From an uncultured Gammaproteobacteria bacterium (lineage in GTDB: Bacteria; Patescibacteriota; Microgenomatia; Levybacterales; UBA12049): a DNA stretch of 64,000 bases. Where the stretch lies: positions 71,803-135,802 of the forward strand of contig CAZEJU010000001.1 of assembly GCA_964512695.1 (NCBI GenBank), in the 5' to 3' direction. Below are positions 28,053-46,987 of this stretch, one piece after another. Position numbers and translations under genes: made by a program. Every line of letters begins with the position of its first letter. Within the stretch, counting starts at the first letter, position 1. The notes under the pieces are model-generated. The model was not told the origin of the DNA. It saw only the letters and a list, made by a program, of their open reading frames with translations, and made no database searches.

Positions 28053-30001
28053 TTGTTTATGAGCGCTGGCAACAGAAATAGCGAAATAAGTAATAATAAA
28101 AATCATAAAAAAATGACACTTCTTGCCTTAGGTGCTCTTGGCGTAGTATATGGAGACATAGGGACATCTCCACTATATGCTATAAATGAAATTTTCTTCG
28201 GACATGCAAAGCTTTCTCATACATATAACAATATTATAGGAGGGATCAGTACTGTATTTTGGGCACTAACACTTATTGTATCTTTTAAGTATGTACTGTT
28301 TGTACTTCGTGCCGATAACGAAGGAGAGGGAGGAGTCTTTGCGTTATATGGATTGATAAGACATTTAAAAAAAAGTCTGTCGGATTATTACTTGCACTGC
28401 TTATAATCGCAGCTGGACTGTTATTCGGTGATGGCATTATTACTCCAGCGATCAGTGTTGTCTCAGCTATCGAAGGCTTAAAAATTGCTACGCCATTATT
28501 GTCTCCTTATGTAGTTCCAATAACAATACTCATCCTTACAGGGCTTTTTATGATTCAAAGTAAAGGTACAGCAAAAATTGGAAATCTCTTTGGACCCATA
28601 GTCAGCATTTGGTTTCTTTCCATAAGTTTATTGGGCATTAATCAGATTTTTCAACATCCGCAAATACTTCAGGCATTCAATCCATTAAATATGCTAACTT
28701 TTATACAAACACATGAATTACACACCATACTATTTTTTTTAGGATCTGTGATGCTTGTAGTAACTGGTGGAGAAGCAATGTATGCTGATATGGGACATTT
28801 TGGTCGAACCCCTATCCGAATAAGTTGGTTTTCTATTGTATATCCTTCACTTGTTTTAAATTACCTTGGTCAAGGAGCATATTTATTAAGTCATAAAGAA
28901 ATTATAGGTGAAAATATCTTTTATAGTATGGTTCCTAGTTGGGGACTTTATCCTATGGTAATACTTGCTACAATGGCAACAATTATTGCATCTCAAGCAC
29001 TAATATCAGGCGCGTTTTCTTTAACCATTCAAGCCATTCAGCTGGGCTTATTACCATATATGAAGGTAATACATACACACGAAGAGCAAAAAGGCCAAAT
29101 TTATATTCCATTTGTAAACTGGGCATTATATATCGGTTGTGTTCTACTTGTAGTTACATTCAAATCAAGCACAAATCTCGCCTCTGCATATGGTTTAGCA
29201 GTGTCAGGAGTAATGCTTGTTACCTCTCTGGGAATGATAATGATTTCTCATTACTATTGGAAGTGGAGCTGGTTTAAGACATTAGCCTTATGGATACCAT
29301 TGGCATGTATTGATGGAATATTCTTAACTTCTAATTCAATAAAAATTTTTTCTGGAGGATATATACCGTTAATTATCGGATTTGGTGTTCTAATATTTAT
29401 GCAAACGTGGGAATGGGGCAGAAAACATGTTACCGATACGTTCGAAAAACTAAAAAATTACAAAGTTGCGGACTTAGTACGTATTAAAAAAGAAAATGAT
29501 TCCGTTTTACCTAGATCTATAGTGCTTATGACAAAACAACCCTTAGAAAGGTTGGAGGATAGTAGCCCATATATGCAACTTTTCTTAGATAGATATGGAA
29601 TTCTACCCGAACATTTATTGTTCCTTTACGTTGAAGTTACAGATCAACCGCATAACTACCAAGATAGATATGAGATTATTTCATTTTATCAACATATCGA
29701 TAAAGGAAGTATATTATCCGTTAAAGCAAAGTACGGATTTATGGAAGATATTGATGTTGAGTTATTACTTAGAGATCTTGCAAAACATAAAGCAATTCCT
29801 ATAGAAGAAGATCCGCGAGAGTGGCTTATTCATGCTGTACATGAAAGAATACTACGTGGCGAATTTAAATCAATAGTTGATAAAATGCGATATATACTAT
29901 TTATTATGATACATAGAGTCACTACTCACGCTGATACATACTTCAACCTCGGTAGAAGAAATAAACTTACAATTGAGATACTTCCAGTATATATCCACTA
30001 G
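28053..30001 (+). pseudogene. kup: KUP-family K+ uptake transporter interrupted by a frameshift in an A8 homopolymer
   Basis: N-terminal piece [18 protein letters not shown] (frame 0) ends shortly after the A-run at 28367-28374. The downstream 500-aa ORF (frame 2) continues the Kup sequence (LLFGDGIITPAISVVSAIEGL...). An A9 run would restore one frame. Confidence 0.7.
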
Positions 30002-30453: not shown

Positions 30454-30849
30454 TCATTTTACTCTGAAGTTCTTATCTTTATTTTTATCCCATCGTTCCT
30501 TCAGTACTGTCATTACTTCCTCTTCTAAAATACCTTGAGATATAAGTTTATCTCGAAGATCCGGATCATATTTTTGATAATTCCTCTCCATTTTTTTTGA
30601 AATAGCTTCCTCTAAATCTATTTCACACTTCGAAGCAAGAGAGGTTAAAATTAATATACAATCTGCGATTTCTTCCGCAATTTCTCCCTTGATCCCTGAG
30701 GTAATTGCTGTCTCAAGTTCTTCCATCTCTTGTATAGCTCGTTTAAAGGTCACTATAGATTCTACATCTAATCCAAGCCTTTTTAGAAGATATGCTTGTT
30801 TATCCTGCATTTCCTTTAGTGTACGAACGTTATAATTCTGCGTTTTCAT
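30454..30849 (-). CDS. MazG-like all-alpha nucleoside triphosphate pyrophosphohydrolase
   Basis: EMEELETAI...EIAEEIADCILILTSLASKCEIDLEEAISKKMERN is the MazG/dCTPase-type EExxE helix pattern. Confidence 0.6.
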   Translation of the reverse strand: MKTQNYNVRTLKEMQDKQAYLLKRLGLDVESIVTFKRAIQEMEELETAITSGIKGEIAEEIADCILILTSLASKCEIDLEEAISKKMERNYQKYDPDLRDKLISQGILEEEVMTVLKERWDKNKDKNFRVK

Positions 30850-30856
30850 ATTACTA

Positions 30857-32527
30857 TTATAGATAAGAAGCATCAAATACTGTTTGGGAAGTAAGATTAT
30901 TGGGTTGGTAAAAATCCTGCAGTGCTTGTTCTACAATTTCCCGTACTCGTCCGCTTGGGACATCTGCAATTTTTAGATCTTTAGGTAACCAGGTATTTTG
31001 GGATTCCGCTCGATACTGTGCTTTCCCATTTAAGCCGGTTTCGCGATGTCGTACATAACTTAATTGTGGAATTACATGCGGCATACTCTCTTCAACTCTT
31101 TTCCAATCTTCAGTGCCAGGATATGGTTTGAATTGAAATGCAGCAATTTCTGTCATACCTCGTCCTTTCAATTCTTTAATAAATGCTAATGTTCTCAGCA
31201 TCTGTTCTTCTGTTTCTCCCGGAAAACCGAAAATAAAGAAACCTTTTGCTTGTATATCATATGCTGCCAGTTTATCAACTGCTGCTCGAACATCATCAGT
31301 TGTCACTTTTTTCTTAATTTGTTTTAACATGTCATCGTCTCCACTCTCTACTCCCAAGGCTATTTTCCAACAACCTGAATCGTGCATTAATTTCATGGTT
31401 TCAGGATCAAAATCTTTAATAACAGGCGCGCGAGTTAAACCCCGCCAAATTGTTTGACCTAATAACCCCCTTTCATCCATACCTCTATGTAAATCTCGTA
31501 CATGTGCAGGAGAGACGATAGCCATATCATCTAAAAAATGGATAGCATTAGCACCTAAATCCCTAACAGCATGCTCTACATTAGTAATAATTCTTCCCAT
31601 CTCAGGTCTTTCATAAGGTTTAAAACCTCTAACTCCTCTATTAACAAGAACAGGAGATGAGCAGAATGTACAATCAAAAGGACAGCCATTAGTTTCAAAA
31701 AGATTGGCTTCACGAATTTTCGTCCTCTTGCCGTGTATATAAACATCATGTTCATAAACAGGTTCCTCAGCATATACTCTTTGATCCACTAAAGGAATTC
31801 TATCAATTGGCCAACCCTTTACGAAATTATCGGGAGATACACTTGATAGATCATCTCCTGGATAGAATACTCCCATCATACGGGGGTTTTCATCATGAAT
31901 CAGTCCGTGTACAAGTTTATTTATTACAGGTTCTCCTGGACCTCGCACAATTGCGGCATTAGGAAAGTCTTCACGAGCTATACGGGGATCTAATGTAGCG
32001 TGTATACCACCTAAAATAACTTTAACACCCATTTTATCGCAAAGTTCAGCAATTTCTATAGCTTCTTGCACGTTTACTGACGTAGGATTAAGTCCAACAA
32101 CTTTTGCACCTGTTTTCACTATCTGTTCAACTATTTCTGTAGGTTGTAACCGTAGACGATGCGCATCGAGGATACCAGCTGATACGGGAGGATATGGTCT
32201 TACTTTACCTTTTCCGGGTATTTCAATCTCCATTTCATGAGCAACGTTAGCAGTAGCGACGACGCGCAGGGGACCATGCGGGAGTTCTTCACCATCTGGA
32301 ATTACTCCTTGCTGATAGGATGATGGCACATTAATCATAAGGAGATCATATGGTCCGCCAGGATAGGGACGAGCCATATGTTCTCTTTTGGCTATTTCCG
32401 GTAATTTATCTTCTTCTATCTTAAAATTTCTCCCACGAACCTCATCAAGTGATTCCTTTACACCTGATCTTGTCTGTGCTTTAAATTGAATTTCATCCAA
32501 GCTAATAAATGGCCCTCTGTCTGTCAT
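30857..32527 (-). CDS. Cobalamin-binding radical SAM protein (class B radical SAM)
   Basis: B12-binding Rossmann segment (VVGLNPTSV...VILGGIHATL) upstream of CPFDCTFC (CxxxCxxC). Amino-acid usage (G/P/R/V/D-rich) unlike neighbouring genes. Confidence 0.75.
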   Translation of the reverse strand: MTDRGPFISLDEIQFKAQTRSGVKESLDEVRGRNFKIEEDKLPEIAKREHMARPYPGGPYDLLMINVPSSYQQGVIPDGEELPHGPLRVVATANVAHEMEIEIPGKGKVRPYPPVSAGILDAHRLRLQPTEIVEQIVKTGAKVVGLNPTSVNVQEAIEIAELCDKMGVKVILGGIHATLDPRIAREDFPNAAIVRGPGEPVINKLVHGLIHDENPRMMGVFYPGDDLSSVSPDNFVKGWPIDRIPLVDQRVYAEEPVYEHDVYIHGKRTKIREANLFETNGCPFDCTFCSSPVLVNRGVRGFKPYERPEMGRIITNVEHAVRDLGANAIHFLDDMAIVSPAHVRDLHRGMDERGLLGQTIWRGLTRAPVIKDFDPETMKLMHDSGCWKIALGVESGDDDMLKQIKKKVTTDDVRAAVDKLAAYDIQAKGFFIFGFPGETEEQMLRTLAFIKELKGRGMTEIAAFQFKPYPGTEDWKRVEESMPHVIPQLSYVRHRETGLNGKAQYRAESQNTWLPKDLKIADVPSGRVREIVEQALQDFYQPNNLTSQTVFDASYL

Positions 32528-32649
32528 AAATTTTTCTCAAAACTGAATAATATCAAAAAGTGCTATAGTAAGTCAATACAAGAGTTATACCATAGATAAT
32601 TGCATCTTATAAGATAGTTATTTCTCTGTATTTTTAGTATAATAACGGT

Positions 32650-33492
32650 ATGAAGTACTTTATTGCACTTTCTTTCGAACACAGAAAAAAACTTGCACCA
32701 GCAATTTCAACTGTTAAGTCATTACTTGAAGAACGGGATGATGAATATATTGTGTATGTGGATCGACAGTTTGAAAATGTCTCTAACACGGTCTTAATGG
32801 AAGGAGCGCTCCGTGAATTAGATGACTCAGATGCTTTATTAGTCGAATCTTCCCATAAAGCAGTAGGAGTGGGGATAGAAGTAGGTGTCGCTTATACACT
32901 CGGTATGCCTGTAGTTTTATTTCGTCAGTCAGGAACTGAACCGTCTACTACCCTGGAGGGTTTAGCATCCGCACCCCCGATACTCTATGAATCTACTAAT
33001 GAATTACGAATGAAAATGACACCAATTTTAGATATTCTGCCTGATCTAATAGTTCCTGAACACCGTGAAGACCGTTGGATGATTAAAGGCTATGTGGAAA
33101 GAGCCAAAAGAGAAGCATCAATGTATGTTAAAAGATATCTTGAAGAGAACGATAAACCCGGACATATACGCCCCTTAGAACAAAGAGTATTATTATTACA
33201 ATTCGCACAGGAATTACTTCATGACGAATCTTTTTTACGACAAGACAGCTTTTCCGTTCGTACCTACGATGTAAGAACACATAAACACTATCAACAAACA
33301 CAAATCGAATTACAAAAAGCAATTTCAGCGCTTACGAGAGAATCATCCATGGTTTGTAGATTGAACGATATAGCCGAAACAACTAGTAATGAATGGAAAA
33401 CCGAAGCCCGCACTGCTTTTTGGGGAAGACCACGGGAAGATCGGTATATTAGCAAAGAAACGGGAACATTTTCTAGGTCTAAAGAAAAATAA
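32650..33492 (+). CDS. Nucleoside 2-deoxyribosyltransferase-like domain protein with C-terminal domain of unknown function
   Basis: DALLVESSHKAVGVGIEVGVAYTLGMPVVLF aligns with the NDT-family acceptor/active-site region. About 170 aa C-terminal extension without recognisable motifs. Confidence 0.5.
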   Translation: MKYFIALSFEHRKKLAPAISTVKSLLEERDDEYIVYVDRQFENVSNTVLMEGALRELDDSDALLVESSHKAVGVGIEVGVAYTLGMPVVLFRQSGTEPSTTLEGLASAPPILYESTNELRMKMTPILDILPDLIVPEHREDRWMIKGYVERAKREASMYVKRYLEENDKPGHIRPLEQRVLLLQFAQELLHDESFLRQDSFSVRTYDVRTHKHYQQTQIELQKAISALTRESSMVCRLNDIAETTSNEWKTEARTAFWGRPREDRYISKETGTFSRSKEK

Positions 33493-39159: not shown

Positions 39160-40026
39160 ATGAAAATTGATGGAAAAACAATTGCAGATAAAATATATGA
39201 ACAGCTCAAGACTAGAACGCAAGAGCTAAAAAATGAAGGAATTAATCCTCACATTGTCGTTATCCTTATAGGGGAAGATCCGGGAAGTGTATCATATGTA
39301 CAGCAAAAGAAGAAATGGTCTGAATTTATAGGTATTAGATTTAGTCTCATACACTATCAGCAAAACGTATCACAAGAAGAAGTTGAGAAGGCAGTAGATC
39401 ATTTAAATAACGATAGACAAGTGCATGGTATTATTATCCAGCGACCAGTTCCCAAACATTTTAACCAAGGAAAACTTTTAAAGATAATCTCCTCTAAAAA
39501 AGACATCGATGGATTTCACCCAGATTCACCTTTCGAAGTTCCTGTCGCTCAGGCAGTATGGAGGCTACTCGAAGAAGTCTACACCAGGTCTAACCTTTAT
39601 GGAGGTTCGACCATAGCACAAGGTTTAACCTTCACTTCTTGGCTTATGCCAAAAAATATAGTCGTCATCGGAAGAGGGGAAACAGCAGGCGGACCGATAA
39701 TTAGTCTTCTGCAAAAGAAAAACCTTAATCCTACTGTAATAGATAGTAAAACTCCTGATCCCCAAAAGAAGATTCAAAAAGGTGACATCGTAATTTCAGC
39801 AGTAGGTAAACCCGGTGTACTGGATAAAAACAGTATTAAACAAGGAGCAATACTTATCGGTGTCGGTTTACGAAAAGACGATTTTGATTCATTAAAGGGT
39901 GATTATTATGAACAGGATATAGTATCAACAGCATCTTTTTATACACCAACTCCAGGAGGCGTAGGGCCAGTAAACGTCGCATACCTTTTAACAAACGTAA
40001 TTGAAGCTGCAGAAAAATACAACTAA
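39160..40026 (+). CDS. folD: Bifunctional methylenetetrahydrofolate dehydrogenase / methenyl-THF cyclohydrolase
   Basis: IDGKTIADKI...VVILIGEDPGSVSYVQQKKK matches the FolD N-terminus. 288 aa. Confidence 0.8.
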   Translation: MKIDGKTIADKIYEQLKTRTQELKNEGINPHIVVILIGEDPGSVSYVQQKKKWSEFIGIRFSLIHYQQNVSQEEVEKAVDHLNNDRQVHGIIIQRPVPKHFNQGKLLKIISSKKDIDGFHPDSPFEVPVAQAVWRLLEEVYTRSNLYGGSTIAQGLTFTSWLMPKNIVVIGRGETAGGPIISLLQKKNLNPTVIDSKTPDPQKKIQKGDIVISAVGKPGVLDKNSIKQGAILIGVGLRKDDFDSLKGDYYEQDIVSTASFYTPTPGGVGPVNVAYLLTNVIEAAEKYN

Positions 40027-40091
40027 TTACTGTATTTTTGAGATTGATAAGTACAAATGCCTACCCAAACCACCTCGAAGGTGGAAACGCA

Positions 40092-40748
40092 TCATCCTTT
40101 TTTATTTTCTAGATATTCCTTTCCATGTCCGACTTCTCTATTAACGGGGATATTCTTTTTACAGAGAGGACATTTTTTTTCTTGATATGCTTCTGCTTTA
40201 AATACTGCAAGTGAGTAAAAAGGAGCTTCCATTGAGATATCATTTACACCATCTGGATTACGGTTTACAAGAACATACACTCCAACAACTGTACCGCTCG
40301 CTTCTTTCACACGTTCTACTACTTTTTTTACTGATGCACCAGTAGTTGTCAGATCTTCAACTACTAGAACTCTTTTATTTTTTACTAATGCATCATATCC
40401 TCTTTTAAACATTTGAGGTCTATCGAAAACTTGTTTCTCATCATATGATTTTTCTGTAAAAACACTTAACACTTCTTTCTTCGTCAAAAGAGATACATGA
40501 TACGCAGTCCATTGAGAAAGGACAATACCACAGATAGCAGGACCGACTACGATATCTATGTCCCAATCTTTTACCTGTTCAGCAATCAACTTACAAACTT
40601 GGGAAGTTAGTCGTGTATAAGGGTATAGTTTATCTTTTCGGATATAGACACTACCATGTTTTCCTGAAGTATAGACGAAATGGTCATCAGTAATGACTGC
40701 ACCAATTTTCTTCAATATACCAATTACGTTTTTATCTGCGCTCCTCAT
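40092..40748 (-). CDS. pyrE: Orotate phosphoribosyltransferase-like type I PRTase
   Basis: PRPP-binding motif RVLVVEDLTTTGASV. Next to pyrF. C-terminal CPLCKK extension. Confidence 0.6.
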   Translation of the reverse strand: MRSADKNVIGILKKIGAVITDDHFVYTSGKHGSVYIRKDKLYPYTRLTSQVCKLIAEQVKDWDIDIVVGPAICGIVLSQWTAYHVSLLTKKEVLSVFTEKSYDEKQVFDRPQMFKRGYDALVKNKRVLVVEDLTTTGASVKKVVERVKEASGTVVGVYVLVNRNPDGVNDISMEAPFYSLAVFKAEAYQEKKCPLCKKNIPVNREVGHGKEYLENKKG

Positions 40749-40754
40749 AGGGTA

Positions 40755-41576
40755 TTATAGTCTATATTTATTTATCTCAGCTCTCATGCTCATCGTTTCT
40801 TTTCTTGCTTTTTCAGCAAAATCTTCACCTTTTGATGCAAATATAATCCCCCGTGATGAGTTAATAATCATGCCTGCTTTTTGAGAATTCAATCCAGCTT
40901 TTACTGTTTTCTCGACATCTCCGCCCTGCACACCTATCCCTGGGACAAGAAAAGTCATTTCTCCAGAAATCTTTCTTACTGCTGCTAATTCCTCAGGATA
41001 TGTCGCTCCTGTAACTAATAAACAATTACCATTTCCATTCCACTCCTTCACAACTTTCTTTGCAACATGCCTATATAATGGTTCGCCATCAATTGCTAAA
41101 TCTTGAAACTCACCAGCACCAGGATTAGATGTACGACAGAGAAAGATACAACCCTTATCTGTTCTCTCGAGAAATCCCCGTTGTGCTTCCTGACCGAGGT
41201 ATACATGTAATGTAACAGCATCTACTCCTAAGTAATCAAAAACATATTTTACATAATTTTTGGTCGTTTCTCCCATATCACCACGTTTCGCATCAAGAAT
41301 AGTAACTACTTCTGGGTAAACCGTTTTCAAATAATCGATTGTCATCTTTAGATCCTTAATTCCATCTGCACCCCGTGCTTCATAAAAGGCAGAGTTTGGT
41401 TTATACGCACAGACTACATCATAAGTAGCATCGATAATCGCTTTATTAAATTCGAACTGAGGATATTGTTTTGACTTCAAATGTGTAGGAAGTTTCCCGA
41501 AATCACTATCAAGCCCGACACAAACAAGAGAATTATTTTTTTTTATAATAAAATCCAATTTTTGTTGGAAAATCAT
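40755..41576 (-). CDS. pyrF: Orotidine 5'-phosphate decarboxylase
   Basis: ILDAKRGDMGET active-site lysine motif. 273 aa. Confidence 0.75.
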   Translation of the reverse strand: MIFQQKLDFIIKKNNSLVCVGLDSDFGKLPTHLKSKQYPQFEFNKAIIDATYDVVCAYKPNSAFYEARGADGIKDLKMTIDYLKTVYPEVVTILDAKRGDMGETTKNYVKYVFDYLGVDAVTLHVYLGQEAQRGFLERTDKGCIFLCRTSNPGAGEFQDLAIDGEPLYRHVAKKVVKEWNGNGNCLLVTGATYPEELAAVRKISGEMTFLVPGIGVQGGDVEKTVKAGLNSQKAGMIINSSRGIIFASKGEDFAEKARKETMSMRAEINKYRL

Positions 41577-43720
41577 ACTTTAGGATATGTCTGAGCTTCA
41601 TAAGTATATCTATTATACTTGCCATTTGTTTTCTTAACACTTTGCTGCATTGTAAACTCTATTCCTAACCTTTCTTTAATTTCAACTGCTAAATATGGAT
41701 TCCACATCGCACCTGTCGCGCTCATTACAGCATCAGCTCCCGCAGTAATATATTCCGCGTAGTCATCAGGTGTGATAACACCACCGACACCGATAATTGA
41801 GAAATCCATCTGCAGCTCTTCACGTAATCGATGCAACCGTTTTACCATATCAATTCCCGCCCATTTAATAGCATGACCACAAACACCGCTATATAGTCTA
41901 CCTTTTCCCGGCAATGCTTGCTCTCCTTTTTCATCAACGATAGCAGCTTGCATTGTGTTAATAACTGATAGTCCCTGTACGAATGGTCCGACAAGTTTTA
42001 CAAGTTTTTTTAACTGCTCATCATCCTGAAAATACGCAAGTTTCAGTAATAGGGGAGTCGTACCTATTTTGTTTTTAACCGCTTCGGTAATTAATCGTGT
42101 GCGCTCTATATCGAAACAGAGTAGATGCGCTGTTCCTTCATTTGGGCAACTCAGATTTGCTTCTAAAATTTTTACACCTGTTTCTTTTACTAACTGTGCT
42201 GCTTTCACAAAATCTCGTATATATGCTTTCACGTTTCCATCTCCTTTCGTTGTTCCTTGGAAACTACCGATAACAATTTGTCCTTTCTTCGCATACGTAA
42301 CTGCATCCGCCAGGTCACTTTGCCAAAAGTCTGGTTTAAAAGAAGGCACACCAAAAGAGTTCGTAATGGATAAAGGCTGACTATACTTTACGGTAGCGAC
42401 TAACGGCTCTTTCGATTTCTCAATTGTTAAATCTCCTTCTAATTGCACACCAACTACATTTGGCCATGGATGACATGGATATTGTCTTGTCCGGACAGTT
42501 TTATAGGTAACCAAATCAAATCCCTTATCTAAAGCGGCTTTCACAAATTTTCCATTTACCAAAGGACCCGCGGGAATACCAAATGGTAAAGTAACTTTCT
42601 CACCAAGAAAATCATAGGTCTGTGCAGCTTTATCGATAGTTGTTTCGCTATTTGCAAATACACTAAATGGTCCTTTTTCACAATTTTCTTCATAAGAGAG
42701 TAGGGGATCATAGAACGGTCGATCTTCAGATAAGGAAACATCCTCGATTCCCAGAGCTTTTCTCCCGTTGGTAGTCGCGATTTTTACTAATCCATCAATA
42801 TCGTAGAATCTATTTGTTTCCATTAAGACACGAAGATCGTTCCACATATTTCCATCGTTATATGGCATAAAAATATCAGCAAGATTATCGATGCCGATTG
42901 CGATAGGGATATCGAGAGGATACATTTCATCAAGAGGGATAATCGGATTATGAATAGGAGCAAGAGTTTCACTTCTTCGAGCATTTAACCAAGACATAGG
43001 GCAAGAAACGAAAATTAATGCAGCTTTTTTAATTAATCTATATATTTGTTCACGGTAGGCTTTTGGATGAGCATTGATAGAAATTCCGTGGATACCGACA
43101 ACTTTTCCTTCCATACCATGCATAATAGTTTTTTTTGCTAGCATCTCAGTTTCTTTTTCTTCAGGAATGTTTAGCTCATCGATATGGACATGGAGCATCT
43201 TCTTTCTTTTTTTCGCAGCAGATAATAAGATGTCTAAATGTTCTTCTTCATGCCCTTCATCTGCTTTTAAAAGACCACCAATTATATCTACAAAGTCAGC
43301 TCCTATCTCAAACCATTCTCTTGTTTCTTTCGTAAGAATTCCATAGCTAGATTGGTTAATGAATTTAATAATAATTTGAGAAGAGTAATTTTCCCTAAGT
43401 TTTTGCGCAGCTTTAATCGCTTTATCTTTTACATCATAATCTACATCAATAAATGTGCATGTAGCAGATACACCTTGGCTAATTAAAAGTTCGATTGCGG
43501 CAGCCATGCGATCATAAATTTGATCGACTGTTGATGTTTTCCGGATATCAGCATTTAACTTCCATTTTTCATGTCTATATGCATTTGCAAGTTTGTATTT
43601 CTCAGGAGTAATTGTAAATGCTCGATCGAAATGTCCATGGCAATTCACCCATCCGCCATTTTCTTTTATTTTTTGTTCAATAATAACACGGAGATTGAGG
43701 TAGTCTACTTTTTTACTCAT
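41573..43720 (-). CDS. Fusion protein: amidohydrolase-superfamily domain (dihydroorotase/dihydropyrimidinase-like) + dihydroorotate dehydrogenase-like domain
   Basis: N-terminal NCHGHFDR (HxH) and MLHVHIDE metal ligands. C-terminal class-1 DHOD-like GPLVNGK, ANLSCPN (catalytic Cys) and IIGVGGV. Confidence 0.65.
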   Translation of the reverse strand: MSKKVDYLNLRVIIEQKIKENGGWVNCHGHFDRAFTITPEKYKLANAYRHEKWKLNADIRKTSTVDQIYDRMAAAIELLISQGVSATCTFIDVDYDVKDKAIKAAQKLRENYSSQIIIKFINQSSYGILTKETREWFEIGADFVDIIGGLLKADEGHEEEHLDILLSAAKKRKKMLHVHIDELNIPEEKETEMLAKKTIMHGMEGKVVGIHGISINAHPKAYREQIYRLIKKAALIFVSCPMSWLNARRSETLAPIHNPIIPLDEMYPLDIPIAIGIDNLADIFMPYNDGNMWNDLRVLMETNRFYDIDGLVKIATTNGRKALGIEDVSLSEDRPFYDPLLSYEENCEKGPFSVFANSETTIDKAAQTYDFLGEKVTLPFGIPAGPLVNGKFVKAALDKGFDLVTYKTVRTRQYPCHPWPNVVGVQLEGDLTIEKSKEPLVATVKYSQPLSITNSFGVPSFKPDFWQSDLADAVTYAKKGQIVIGSFQGTTKGDGNVKAYIRDFVKAAQLVKETGVKILEANLSCPNEGTAHLLCFDIERTRLITEAVKNKIGTTPLLLKLAYFQDDEQLKKLVKLVGPFVQGLSVINTMQAAIVDEKGEQALPGKGRLYSGVCGHAIKWAGIDMVKRLHRLREELQMDFSIIGVGGVITPDDYAEYITAGADAVMSATGAMWNPYLAVEIKERLGIEFTMQQSVKKTNGKYNRYTYEAQTYPKV

Positions 43721-46241: not shown

Positions 46242-46382
46242 AAACTAAAAAATTAAGTAACTGATGCTTCTCAATGCATACGTTTTCTAAAAAATCTGTA
46301 AATATTTGAGAAAAATTGCTTTTTACCATTACAGTTACTGTAAAGAATTACATGATATATGTCAACTATAAAAAACTGTATC

Positions 46383-46470
46383 ACTACTAACTACTAACTA
46401 CTAACTACTAACTCATGACTCATAACAGGTAACTCGTAACTCATAATTCACAATTTGTAACTGCAAACTA
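46383..46470. repeat. Tandem heptamer array (CTAACTA)n degenerating into TAACTNN units
   Basis: ctactaactactaactactaactactaactcatgactcataacaggtaactcgtaactcataattcacaatttgtaactgc. 7-nt periodicity visible. Confidence 0.7.
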
Positions 46471-46597
46471 AGATTATAATTGACCGCCTAAAAACAATTT
46501 AGTACAATCTCATGAGATAAAGAACTAAGACAAACTATCATGCAGTTTGTTTTTTCGTTTTTTAGCCTACATGTAATTCGCACGTTAATACTGCATA

Positions 46598-46650
46598 AAA
46601 AGTCACGGCAGAGAGAGGAGAAAATGACTGTCTCTTTTGTCTGCCGTGAC
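46598..46650. repeat. GC-rich 13-bp-stem hairpin (aagtcacggcaga...tctgccgtgactt)
   Basis: Perfect 13-bp inverted repeat. Immediately precedes the RBS of the small basic ORF. Confidence 0.55.
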
Positions 46651-46710
46651 TTTATGGGATAAGTTACGGTGGCCACGGGACCAATCCCGAAATACCTCAT
46701 AGGAGAGGTT

Positions 46711-46857
46711 ATGGCTAAGAAAAAGCCAGGAGTGGTGCAACATCCTCGAAAGCGTGAACATCGAGACAAGCCCAAGCCGAAAGCGATCATGAAGAACGCG
46801 CGGAAATGGGATGCACGAGCAAAAATGTCTGCTCGAGAGAACGCACCGCCTGACTAA
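46711..46857 (+). CDS. Small highly basic protein (48 aa) of unknown function
   Basis: AGGAGAGG RBS 2 nt before ATG. Sequence MAKKKPGVVQHPRKREHRDKPKPKAIMKNARKWDARAKMSARENAPPD. About 50% GC against a ~33% background. Confidence 0.4.
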   Translation: MAKKKPGVVQHPRKREHRDKPKPKAIMKNARKWDARAKMSARENAPPD

Positions 46858-46896
46858 ACCATCACACTCTCGACTTAACCCTAAGTTTGCAGTACC

Positions 46897-46928
46897 GTGT
46901 TCGGGGGCAGCAGACATCTGTCTGCTGT
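46897..46928. repeat. GC-rich hairpin (ggggcagcagaca-tc-tgtctgctgtcccc)
   Basis: 13-bp stem with one bulged T. Follows the stop of the small basic ORF. Confidence 0.5.
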
Positions 46929-46987
46929 CCCCACAGTTGTTAATTATCCCTTTGACAATTCATCGTCATTTTCGGTAATATATCTCT

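Follow-up and report, generated by a model that had tools for sequence, protein, structure and literature searches.

A rare radical SAM family linked to nucleotide pyrophosphatases and a MilB/DNPH1-like protein in Patescibacteria and Micrarchaeota: a possible nucleotide-modification module

The window analysed here is the 64,000-nt stretch from position 71,803 to 135,802 of contig CAZEJU010000001.1 (assembly GCA_964512695.1). At 30,454 to 33,492 of the window lies a locus of three genes. They encode a radical S-adenosylmethionine (rSAM) enzyme of class-B architecture, a MazG-type nucleoside triphosphate (NTP) pyrophosphatase, and a 280-amino-acid-residue protein whose N-terminal domain is like nucleoside 2-deoxyribosyltransferases (NDT). 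We propose, with a confidence just short of even, that this locus is a rare conserved nucleotide-modification module of ultra-small symbionts, namely Patescibacteria (the candidate phyla radiation, CPR) and Micrarchaeota, and that its rSAM enzyme acts on a free ribonucleotide. The proposal starts from the domains identified in the proteins, from the conserved linkage of the genes and from the replacement of one pyrophosphatase fold by another beside the rSAM gene, all of which are observed.

CPR bacteria and DPANN archaea are ultra-small, have reduced genomes and are thought to depend on their hosts for nucleotides, and most of their accessory enzymes are uncharacterised. Here a sharply defined rSAM family spans two domains of life, and its genomic partners consistently point at free nucleotides. 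The module is a well-defined lead for enzyme discovery in CPR and DPANN and overturns nothing. It could lead to a new rSAM reaction on a nucleotide and to insight into nucleotide-pool control in reduced symbionts. The MilB/DNPH1 fold may also be put to a new use in it, as an enzyme on the one hand and, where Gln replaces Glu and a probable DNA-binding tail is present, as a likely sensor on the other.

Linkage of the rSAM family to nucleotide enzymes

The rSAM family consists of ~95 homologues at about 35-61% (up to 63%) identity, set off by a sharp gap from further matches at 31% or less. Those with names are from Patescibacteria (Woesebacteria, Levybacteria). Scanning species-representative genomes gave ~15 family loci, including loci of Saccharibacteria, Curtissbacteria, Microgenomates and three Micrarchaeota archaea, and a metagenome scan gave 17 further ones; no member was found in a scan of viral contigs. 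The archaeal rSAM proteins (L004, L005, L006, all Micrarchaeota) are 43-45% identical to those of Patescibacteria (L001-L014). A family common to Micrarchaeota and CPR at this level implies transfer of the module between domains.

Loci were fetched with the rSAM alignment, and partner genes on them were detected by tblastn and by hidden Markov models (HMMs) made from the partners. A word-indexed homologue search with the 280-residue protein gave one relative only, wrongly hinting at no conserved partner, and the hits of an NDT-like profile were mostly to a divergent form of ~198 residues, not to the short type-1 proteins. Loci with rSAM proteins at least 90% identical were merged into 31 lineages, 30 of which were informative, and partners were counted within 3.5 kb of the rSAM gene.

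A partner was present in 26 of the 30 informative lineages. The NDT-like gene was found in 16 lineages, usually directly downstream of the rSAM gene on the same strand and abutting or overlapping it. An NTP pyrophosphatase was found in 15, some of which had two: Maf in eight (Pfam E ~1e-36), Ham1/ITPase in five (1.5e-36), MazG in three (the window, L165 and L166), and in one a Nudix domain fused to the NDT-like protein. This fusion is a 271-residue NDT-like::MutT-like Nudix protein (L163:6712-7527), which follows the closest homologue of the window rSAM (61% identity). In the archaeal loci L005 and L006, Maf is directly downstream of the rSAM gene. Eleven lineages had the NDT-like gene only, ten a pyrophosphatase only, and five had both. 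A P-loop kinase family follows the rSAM gene in five lineages. Adenylate, guanylate, cytidylate-like and thymidylate-like kinases and nucleoside diphosphate kinase (NDK) also lie nearby in various loci, as do an AMP/thymidine-phosphorylase-type gene, a nucleoside hydrolase and HAD phosphatases. Four unrelated pyrophosphatase folds in the same slot, together with the Nudix fusion, indicate that nucleotide pyrophosphatase activity is what is selected.

As a control, 130 loci (1.3 Mb) around other class-B rSAM genes were searched, and none had an NDT-like, Maf or Ham1 gene. Co-occurrence of the rSAM and NDT-like genes in other genomes, raised in the original prediction of this locus, is therefore real, and the conserved and specific linkage also supports its suggestion that the three genes work together as a unit directed at nucleotides. 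The pairwise divergences of the rSAM and NDT-like proteins were correlated (r 0.58, Mantel p ~2e-4); shared species history adds to this correlation, which is supporting evidence only.

Three loci have an rSAM gene broken into two ORFs (L013:8304-9375, L012:7950-9539 and also L095); these may be pseudogenes or sequencing frameshifts. In one Patescibacteria lineage (L014:4526-8563; also L090) the rSAM-Maf pair stands directly after a 428-residue ORF, probably secY, and an adenylate kinase gene. This place looks like the end of the ribosomal-protein operon, which suggests constitutive expression at a housekeeping level. Third Party Annotation (TPA) metagenome-assembled genomes at L001, L002, L008, L012 and L013 carry the CPR-type module and are labelled Gammaproteobacteria or Pseudomonadales. 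Because of their gene content and relatives, this label looks like a mistake.

The three proteins

The rSAM protein matched the Pfam models Radical_SAM (E 4e-20) and B12-binding (35.8 bits, cutoff 32.1, residues 128-202), and the cysteines of the CPFDCTFC cluster motif (C282-x3-C286-x2-C289) were invariant in an alignment of 25 homologues, which bears out the domains and motif first read from the sequence. The AlphaFold2 (AF2) model, with a predicted local distance difference test score (pLDDT) of 84.6, has an alternating beta/alpha core. The CxxxCxxC motif, the Pfam match and this core, taken for the partial TIM barrel of the superfamily, place the protein among the Radical SAM enzymes, and the N-terminal Rossmann-type cobalamin-binding domain ahead of this core gives it the class-B architecture.

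The protein reached the cutoff of no NCBIfam model: it scored 104 bits against a cutoff of 600 for the PhpK family, 95 against 251 for TIGR04013, 82 against 578 for HpnJ and 65 against 500 for AprD4. With 104 bits as its best score, it falls outside the known curated families, as the original prediction would require. The closest solved structures by sequence profile were AprD4, MgmA/QCMT, OxsB and TokK, and Foldseek matched the model to MgmA, AprD4, TsrM, OxsB, MiaB and TokK, all at 14-18% identity. Judged by its sequence and fold, the enzyme represents a separate uncharacterised family with class-I B12-rSAM architecture, an architecture set out in a 2026 review (PMC12931638). A GLNPTSVN loop is invariant at G145, N147, T149, S150 and N152, and it aligns with the loop at the cobalamin face of TokK (W76-N77) and OxsB (N186) (PMC12931638). 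This loop points to cobalamin binding and is suggestive, not proof.

Besides the cluster motif, the family has one extra conserved cysteine, C163. A role like that of ribonucleotide reductase or thymidylate synthase was considered and left as speculation, the family being rare and having only this one extra conserved Cys, and the organism of the window already having FolD and de novo pyrimidine genes.

The MazG protein scored above the cutoffs of both Pfam models, MazG-like (31.2 bits, cutoff 27) and MazG (24.9 bits, cutoff 22), so that its predicted identity stands. The metal-binding acidic motif (EELE, then EEIAD) could be read in the sequence, and ExxE...ExxD together with these scores assigns the protein to the all-alpha NTP pyrophosphohydrolases. 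Its closest solved relatives are the archaeal pyrophosphatase 4qgp and DCTPP1/RS21-C6.

In the AF2 model of the 280-residue protein (pLDDT 77.8), residues 1-133 form an alpha/beta domain and residues 142-265 a helical one. The alpha/beta domain has the flavodoxin-like fold of the NDT superfamily (PF05014). In profile comparison the NDT-like partner was closest to DNPH1/Rcl (7e-13) and to the cytidine monophosphate (CMP) N-glycosidase BcmB (2e-5), whereas the classical deoxyribosyltransferases gave only 0.004-0.06. The original description of an NDT-like domain followed by a C-terminal domain thus holds for the NDT/LOG-like fold and the catalytic Glu, and the C-terminal part is ~150 residues long, not ~170.

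We mapped residues of the window protein onto rat Rcl (human DNPH1 numbers in brackets), with roles taken from PMC10603095. E77, in the motif GVGIEVG, corresponds to the nucleophile E93 (E104) and is kept in all short type-1 partners; S99 corresponds to the phosphate-binding S117 and E66 to E82, and both are invariant. F4 stands at the place of Y13 (Y24), the Tyr that selects 2'-deoxyribose in DNPH1, and this position is Phe in all type-1 partners, as at F17 of MilB. A53 stands at the place of the general acid D69 (D80), where other type-1 sequences have Ala, Val or Thr, mostly Ala. A71 corresponds to the phosphate-binding S87 and is Ser in several type-1 orthologues, else Ala, Gln or Lys. F17 of MilB accommodates ribose, and the F17Y exchange restores a preference for deoxyribose (PMC10603095). 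From these residues, the N-terminal domain is probably a ribonucleoside 5'-monophosphate N-glycosidase or a nucleotide-binding module, and N-glycosidase activity of the MilB type is probable rather than certain.

The same residues bear on another role of this protein, namely that of a dedicated nucleosidase for 5'-deoxyadenosine (or S-adenosylhomocysteine, SAH), inhibitory by-products of rSAM enzymes, with the other neighbours coincidental. The tight pairing of the rSAM and NDT-like genes, with overlaps, would suit such a role, and the Phe that stands where MilB has F17 leaves room for a ribo sugar. The invariant Ser99, however, matches the 5'-phosphate-binding Ser of DNPH1 and 5'-deoxyadenosine has no phosphate, and four kinds of pyrophosphatase, the Nudix fusion and the kinases would be left unexplained. 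We regard this role as highly improbable.

The C-terminal domain of the 280-residue protein has helices at 142-166, 175-191, 208-238 and 243-258 in the model (pLDDT ~55-87). No Pfam model matched it, and an exhaustive phmmer search of 1.84 billion representatives gave one relative, P0122. The C-terminal appendage of the NDT-like proteins varies: it is this orphan helical domain in the window, a 177-residue extension in L008 with no similarity to it, a Nudix domain in L163, and a probable ribbon-helix-helix (RHH) domain in type 2. In the type-2 form (~198 residues) the nucleophile Glu is replaced by Gln, and the tail gives weak RHH matches; examples are L014:9225-9812 (-), L088:176-787 (-) and P0123-P0145, and several of the P hits lie on contigs that agree in length with those of rSAM hits. 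This form is probably a transcriptional regulator that senses nucleotides, acts on the same operons and arose from the enzyme fold.

Proposed reaction sequence and other explanations

What the partners have in common is a nucleoside 5'-phosphate: pyrophosphatases convert an NTP into a nucleoside monophosphate (NMP), kinases do the reverse and MilB/DNPH1-like proteins bind an NMP. We place the rSAM enzyme on a free ribonucleotide for this reason. In the proposed sequence, the MazG-type pyrophosphatase would turn the relevant NTP into an NMP, either to supply the substrate or to prevent the modified nucleotide from joining the NTP pool. The rSAM enzyme would make a 5'-deoxyadenosyl radical and modify the base or the sugar of the NMP. 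The MilB/DNPH1-like protein would then bind the 5'-phosphate and cleave the N-glycosidic bond via Glu77, which would give the (modified) free base and ribose 5-phosphate. C-methylation would be the most likely rSAM chemistry, since most characterised class-B enzymes perform it; a dehydration or rearrangement, like those of AprD4 or OxsB, would be the alternative. The substrate, the chemistry, the order of the steps and the dependence on cobalamin are what we infer from the genes.

A stronger claim would be that the enzyme carries out a new radical reaction on a free ribonucleotide, in a CPR/DPANN-specific nucleotide pathway to a methylated base or an analogue. We hold this to be doubtful. If it were true, a base could, for example, be C-methylated on the NMP in a reaction that depends on cobalamin and then be released by the MilB-like protein, which could give a methylated pyrimidine or purine independently of folate; another example would be a nucleotide analogue used in conflict between host and symbiont or with viruses. 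The statement that the three activities are not a described pathway agrees with the literature searched, in which no description of the gene combination was found, and the logic has precedents in OxsB/OxsA and MilA/MilB.

Several points weigh against a modification module acting on a free ribonucleotide. Four rSAM loci (L004, L015, L085, L168) have no partner, and some lie in glycan clusters (L169, L093/L096, L168). AprD4 has the same two-domain architecture, and we take it not to use cobalamin. It is listed as unrelated to B12 enzymes (PMC12931638). In the NDT-like protein, the Pfam model Nuc_deoxyrib_tr scored 21.5 bits on residues 22-96, below the cutoff of 28.8, which the rSAM-adjacent orthologues of L001 (31.3), L163 (39.2) and L169 (29.8) exceed. 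The general-acid Asp of DNPH1 is absent, with no conserved acidic residue nearby in type-1 proteins, and because this feature of the DNPH1 catalytic triad is missing, glycosidase activity is not assured. The largely complementary pattern of NDT-like-only and pyrophosphatase-only lineages, moreover, is explained no less well by alternative means of disposal than by successive steps of a pathway.

This complementarity is what interchangeable disposal routes would produce, and it suits an explanation by sanitation: the rSAM enzyme would modify a macromolecule (e.g. tRNA or rRNA) or make a non-canonical nucleotide as a side product, and the partners would house-clean, so that modified NMP or NTP is not incorporated into nucleic acids again, like DCTPP1 and DNPH1 in mammals. 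Maf, Ham1, MazG and Nudix proteins are classic house-cleaning enzymes. The nearest counterparts of the window MazG and of the NDT-like protein, DCTPP1 and DNPH1, form a known sanitising pair, and the fold of the rSAM enzyme is like that of the tRNA enzyme MiaB. On the other hand, the rSAM model has no TRAM-like beta-barrel and its C-terminal part is mostly helical, the recurrent adjacent kinases are hard to square with pure disposal, and Phe for Tyr and the missing Asp set the NDT-like partner apart from DNPH1 in detail. We know of no RNA-modifying enzyme that is operonically tied to a sanitiser. Sanitation is in our judgement unlikely.

The glycan clusters suit a different substrate, a small molecule or sugar linked to a nucleotide (NDP-X), as with Fom3 acting on CMP-linked hydroxyethylphosphonate. 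The pyrophosphatases would then remove the nucleotide handle, and the product would feed glycan or cell-surface synthesis. Nudix enzymes cleave NDP-X. L169 lies inside a cluster of glycosyltransferase (GT) and flippase genes, a sugar-phosphate nucleotidyltransferase gene directly follows the NDT-like gene in L093 and L096, and GT and PMT genes are downstream in L168. Such surroundings, however, occur in only 3-4 of the 31 loci, Maf, Ham1 and MazG prefer NTPs, and an NMP glycosidase would have no obvious role. We hold a nucleotide-linked substrate to be very unlikely.

Production of a nucleotide analogue is a further explanation. From an NTP supplied by the kinases, the rSAM enzyme would make a nucleotide with antiviral or antimetabolite action, in the manner of viperin or OxsB/OxsA, and the pyrophosphatase and glycosidase would protect or reset the producer. 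A kinase gene beside an rSAM gene is also typical of viperin loci, and OxsB is a B12-rSAM enzyme that acts on deoxyadenosine phosphates and has a phosphohydrolase partner. Its reaction is a ring contraction in the oxetanocin A pathway (PMC12931638). The rSAM family is rare and patchy and crosses domains, as is typical of accessory or conflict genes, and L163, the locus of the closest homologue, lies amid KAP-NTPase/QatB, ArdC-N and RadC genes, surroundings suggestive of defence or of a mobile element. Against this, the PADLOC models left the MazG and NDT-like proteins unmatched and gave the rSAM enzyme one faint match (PDC-M51A, 20.5 bits, with no matched stretch), the viral contigs hold no family member, and no effector or sensor genes were seen. 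The surroundings in the window and in most related loci that are annotated (gyrB/gyrA, secY-adk, pth, YceG) are housekeeping ones. We consider an analogue-producing role quite unlikely. For the nucleotide-depleting defence role once suggested for this locus we found no positive evidence in PADLOC or in these housekeeping surroundings; L163 alone lies amid defence or mobile genes.

In its logic the locus resembles OxsB/OxsA, MilA/MilB with BcmA/BcmB, and DCTPP1 with DNPH1, and it is a member of none of these systems. Like OxsB and OxsA of oxetanocin A synthesis in Bacillus megaterium, it joins a cobalamin-domain rSAM enzyme to a co-encoded phosphohydrolase, by our proposal likewise on a nucleoside phosphate, and OxsB ranks among the top matches of the window rSAM in both sequence and fold. 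OxsB, however, is only 14-15% identical and has extra N-terminal and helix-bundle domains, OxsA is an HD-domain phosphohydrolase and not MazG, Maf, Ham1 or Nudix, and the pair belongs to a plasmid-borne antibiotic biosynthesis with no N-glycosidase partner. In the mildiomycin (MilA/MilB) and bacimethrin (BcmA/BcmB) systems the base is modified as CMP and then freed by an NDT-fold N-glycosidase. There the modifier is a thymidylate-synthase homologue, not an rSAM enzyme, and unlike MilB and BcmB the window partner has no catalytic-triad Asp; genes for downstream antibiotic assembly are absent here.

Mammalian DCTPP1 and DNPH1, the best sequence-level solved relatives of the window MazG and NDT-like proteins, are, as in the proposed module, a MazG-type pyrophosphatase and an N-hydrolase in series on a modified nucleotide. 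Their genes are unlinked and no rSAM enzyme is involved, and DNPH1 is deoxy-specific (Tyr24) and uses Asp80, where the window protein has Phe and Ala. Viperin and the prokaryotic viperins share an rSAM enzyme on an NTP with a kinase gene next door, but they are not class-B, have no cobalamin domain and are related to the window enzyme in no more than the rSAM core. The 1,2-diol dehydratase AprD4 and MgmA/QCMT, a C-methylase of a glutamine in MCR, have the same two-domain architecture and are the best solved-structure matches; they differ in sequence (16-18% identity) and in substrate (an aminoglycoside and a protein), and have no nucleotide-related partners.

Position, composition and surroundings of the locus

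On re-reading the sequence, the three ORFs were found where they had been predicted (Table 1). The gene of the 280-residue protein (32650-33492, +) is divergent from the rSAM gene and starts 122 nt from the rSAM start.

Table 1. Features of the three-gene locus (window positions).
Feature	Position	Strand	Basis
MazG-type all-alpha NTP pyrophosphohydrolase	30454-30849	-	Pfam, acidic motif, PDB relatives
rSAM enzyme, 556 residues, class-B (cobalamin-domain) architecture	30857-32527	-	Pfam, family search, AF2 model
Divergent intergenic region, 122 nt, between the probable rSAM-MazG operon and the NDT-like gene	32528-32649	none	
N-terminal MilB/DNPH1/NDT-fold domain, residues 1-133 of the 280-residue protein	32650-33048	+	
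Orphan all-helical C-terminal domain, residues ~134-280 of the 280-residue protein	33049-33492	+	

In the protein collection (source NCBI), the MazG protein has 131 residues and starts with ATG at 30849, 7 nt past the rSAM stop. Because of this short distance, the two genes are probably co-transcribed. An upstream alternative start, TTG at 30876, would give 140 residues and a 20-nt overlap with the rSAM gene, and the overlap of the two genes first described exists only with this start; with the recorded ATG there is a 7-nt gap. A promoter-like site, TTGACT-18-(TG)TATTAT, faces the rSAM gene on the - strand at 32576-32547, and the number of such sites in 32528-32649 is not above chance. An Rfam scan of the window from 26 to 38 kb found no riboswitch or other RNA, and the 122-nt intergenic region matched no family.

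The locus had been described as compositionally foreign. We compared its genes with the 61 window ORFs of at least 100 residues. The rSAM gene has a GC content of 0.400 (z +1.3) and a GC content at third codon positions (GC3) of 0.234 (z -0.6); the z-scores of GC and GC3 are +1.0 and +0.3 for the gene of the 280-residue protein and -0.9 and +0.2 for the MazG gene. GC3 is thus native in all three genes (z -0.6 to +0.3), and foreign composition is not borne out. The raised local GC that had been noticed amounts to a slight rise in the two larger genes, and 1-kb bins with GC 0.39 are present elsewhere in the window. Likewise, the richness in G/P/R/V/D noted for both the rSAM and the 280-residue protein holds for the rSAM enzyme only, which alone stands out in amino-acid composition: its G/P/R/V/D/A content (z +2.7) and the GC at its first codon positions (GC1, z +2.2) are outliers. 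Its deviation, which sits in GC1 and residue content, is that of a conserved enzyme's amino-acid composition and no sign of foreign DNA.

No direct repeats flank the locus, and no mobility gene, integrase or adjacent tRNA was found at it; the sole tRNA of the window is 28 kb away. A foreign island was accordingly rejected on per-gene GC, GC1-3, amino-acid z-scores, 1-kb bins, repeats and tRNAs: its synonymous-site composition is native and mobility signatures are lacking. That the three genes became adjacent by accident, in a recently acquired islet, would draw on the slight rise in GC and on the patchy presence of the rSAM family in bacteria and archaea alike, but the partner linkage is kept in most lineages and absent from the control loci, and such an accident is scarcely credible.

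The flanking genes are housekeeping ones: a P-type ATPase, MgtE, Kup, gyrB, inorganic pyrophosphatase, gyrA, FolD and pyrimidine biosynthesis genes. The gene of the Kup-type K+ transporter (28053-30001) is in two ORFs, one of 117 residues at 28053-28406 and one of 500 residues at 28499-30001, the second matching positions 130-443 of the K_trans profile plus the C-terminal domain. A frameshift, a pseudogene or an assembly error could account for the split. At 39160-43720, 6-10 kb from the module, lie genes for FolD, a phosphoribosyltransferase-domain protein that is likely an orotate phosphoribosyltransferase, orotidine monophosphate (OMP) decarboxylase, and a 715-residue fusion of an amidohydrolase (dihydroorotase-like) to dihydroorotate dehydrogenase. 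The organism of the window therefore has folate-dependent and de novo pyrimidine enzymes. In L008, whose NDT-like partner is closest to that of the window, homologues of the 715-residue fusion lie ~4 kb from the module.

A GC-rich patch was seen within 46380-46930, where the ORF-sized stretch 46603-46917 has a GC content of 0.51 against 0.36 for the window; the patch has no Rfam match. An ACTAACT tandem repeat (46380-46412) precedes it, and a small, very basic ORF at ~46712-46858 (MAKKKPGVVQHPRKREHRDKPKPK...) stands in it between strong hairpins at 46605-46653 and 46904-46933.

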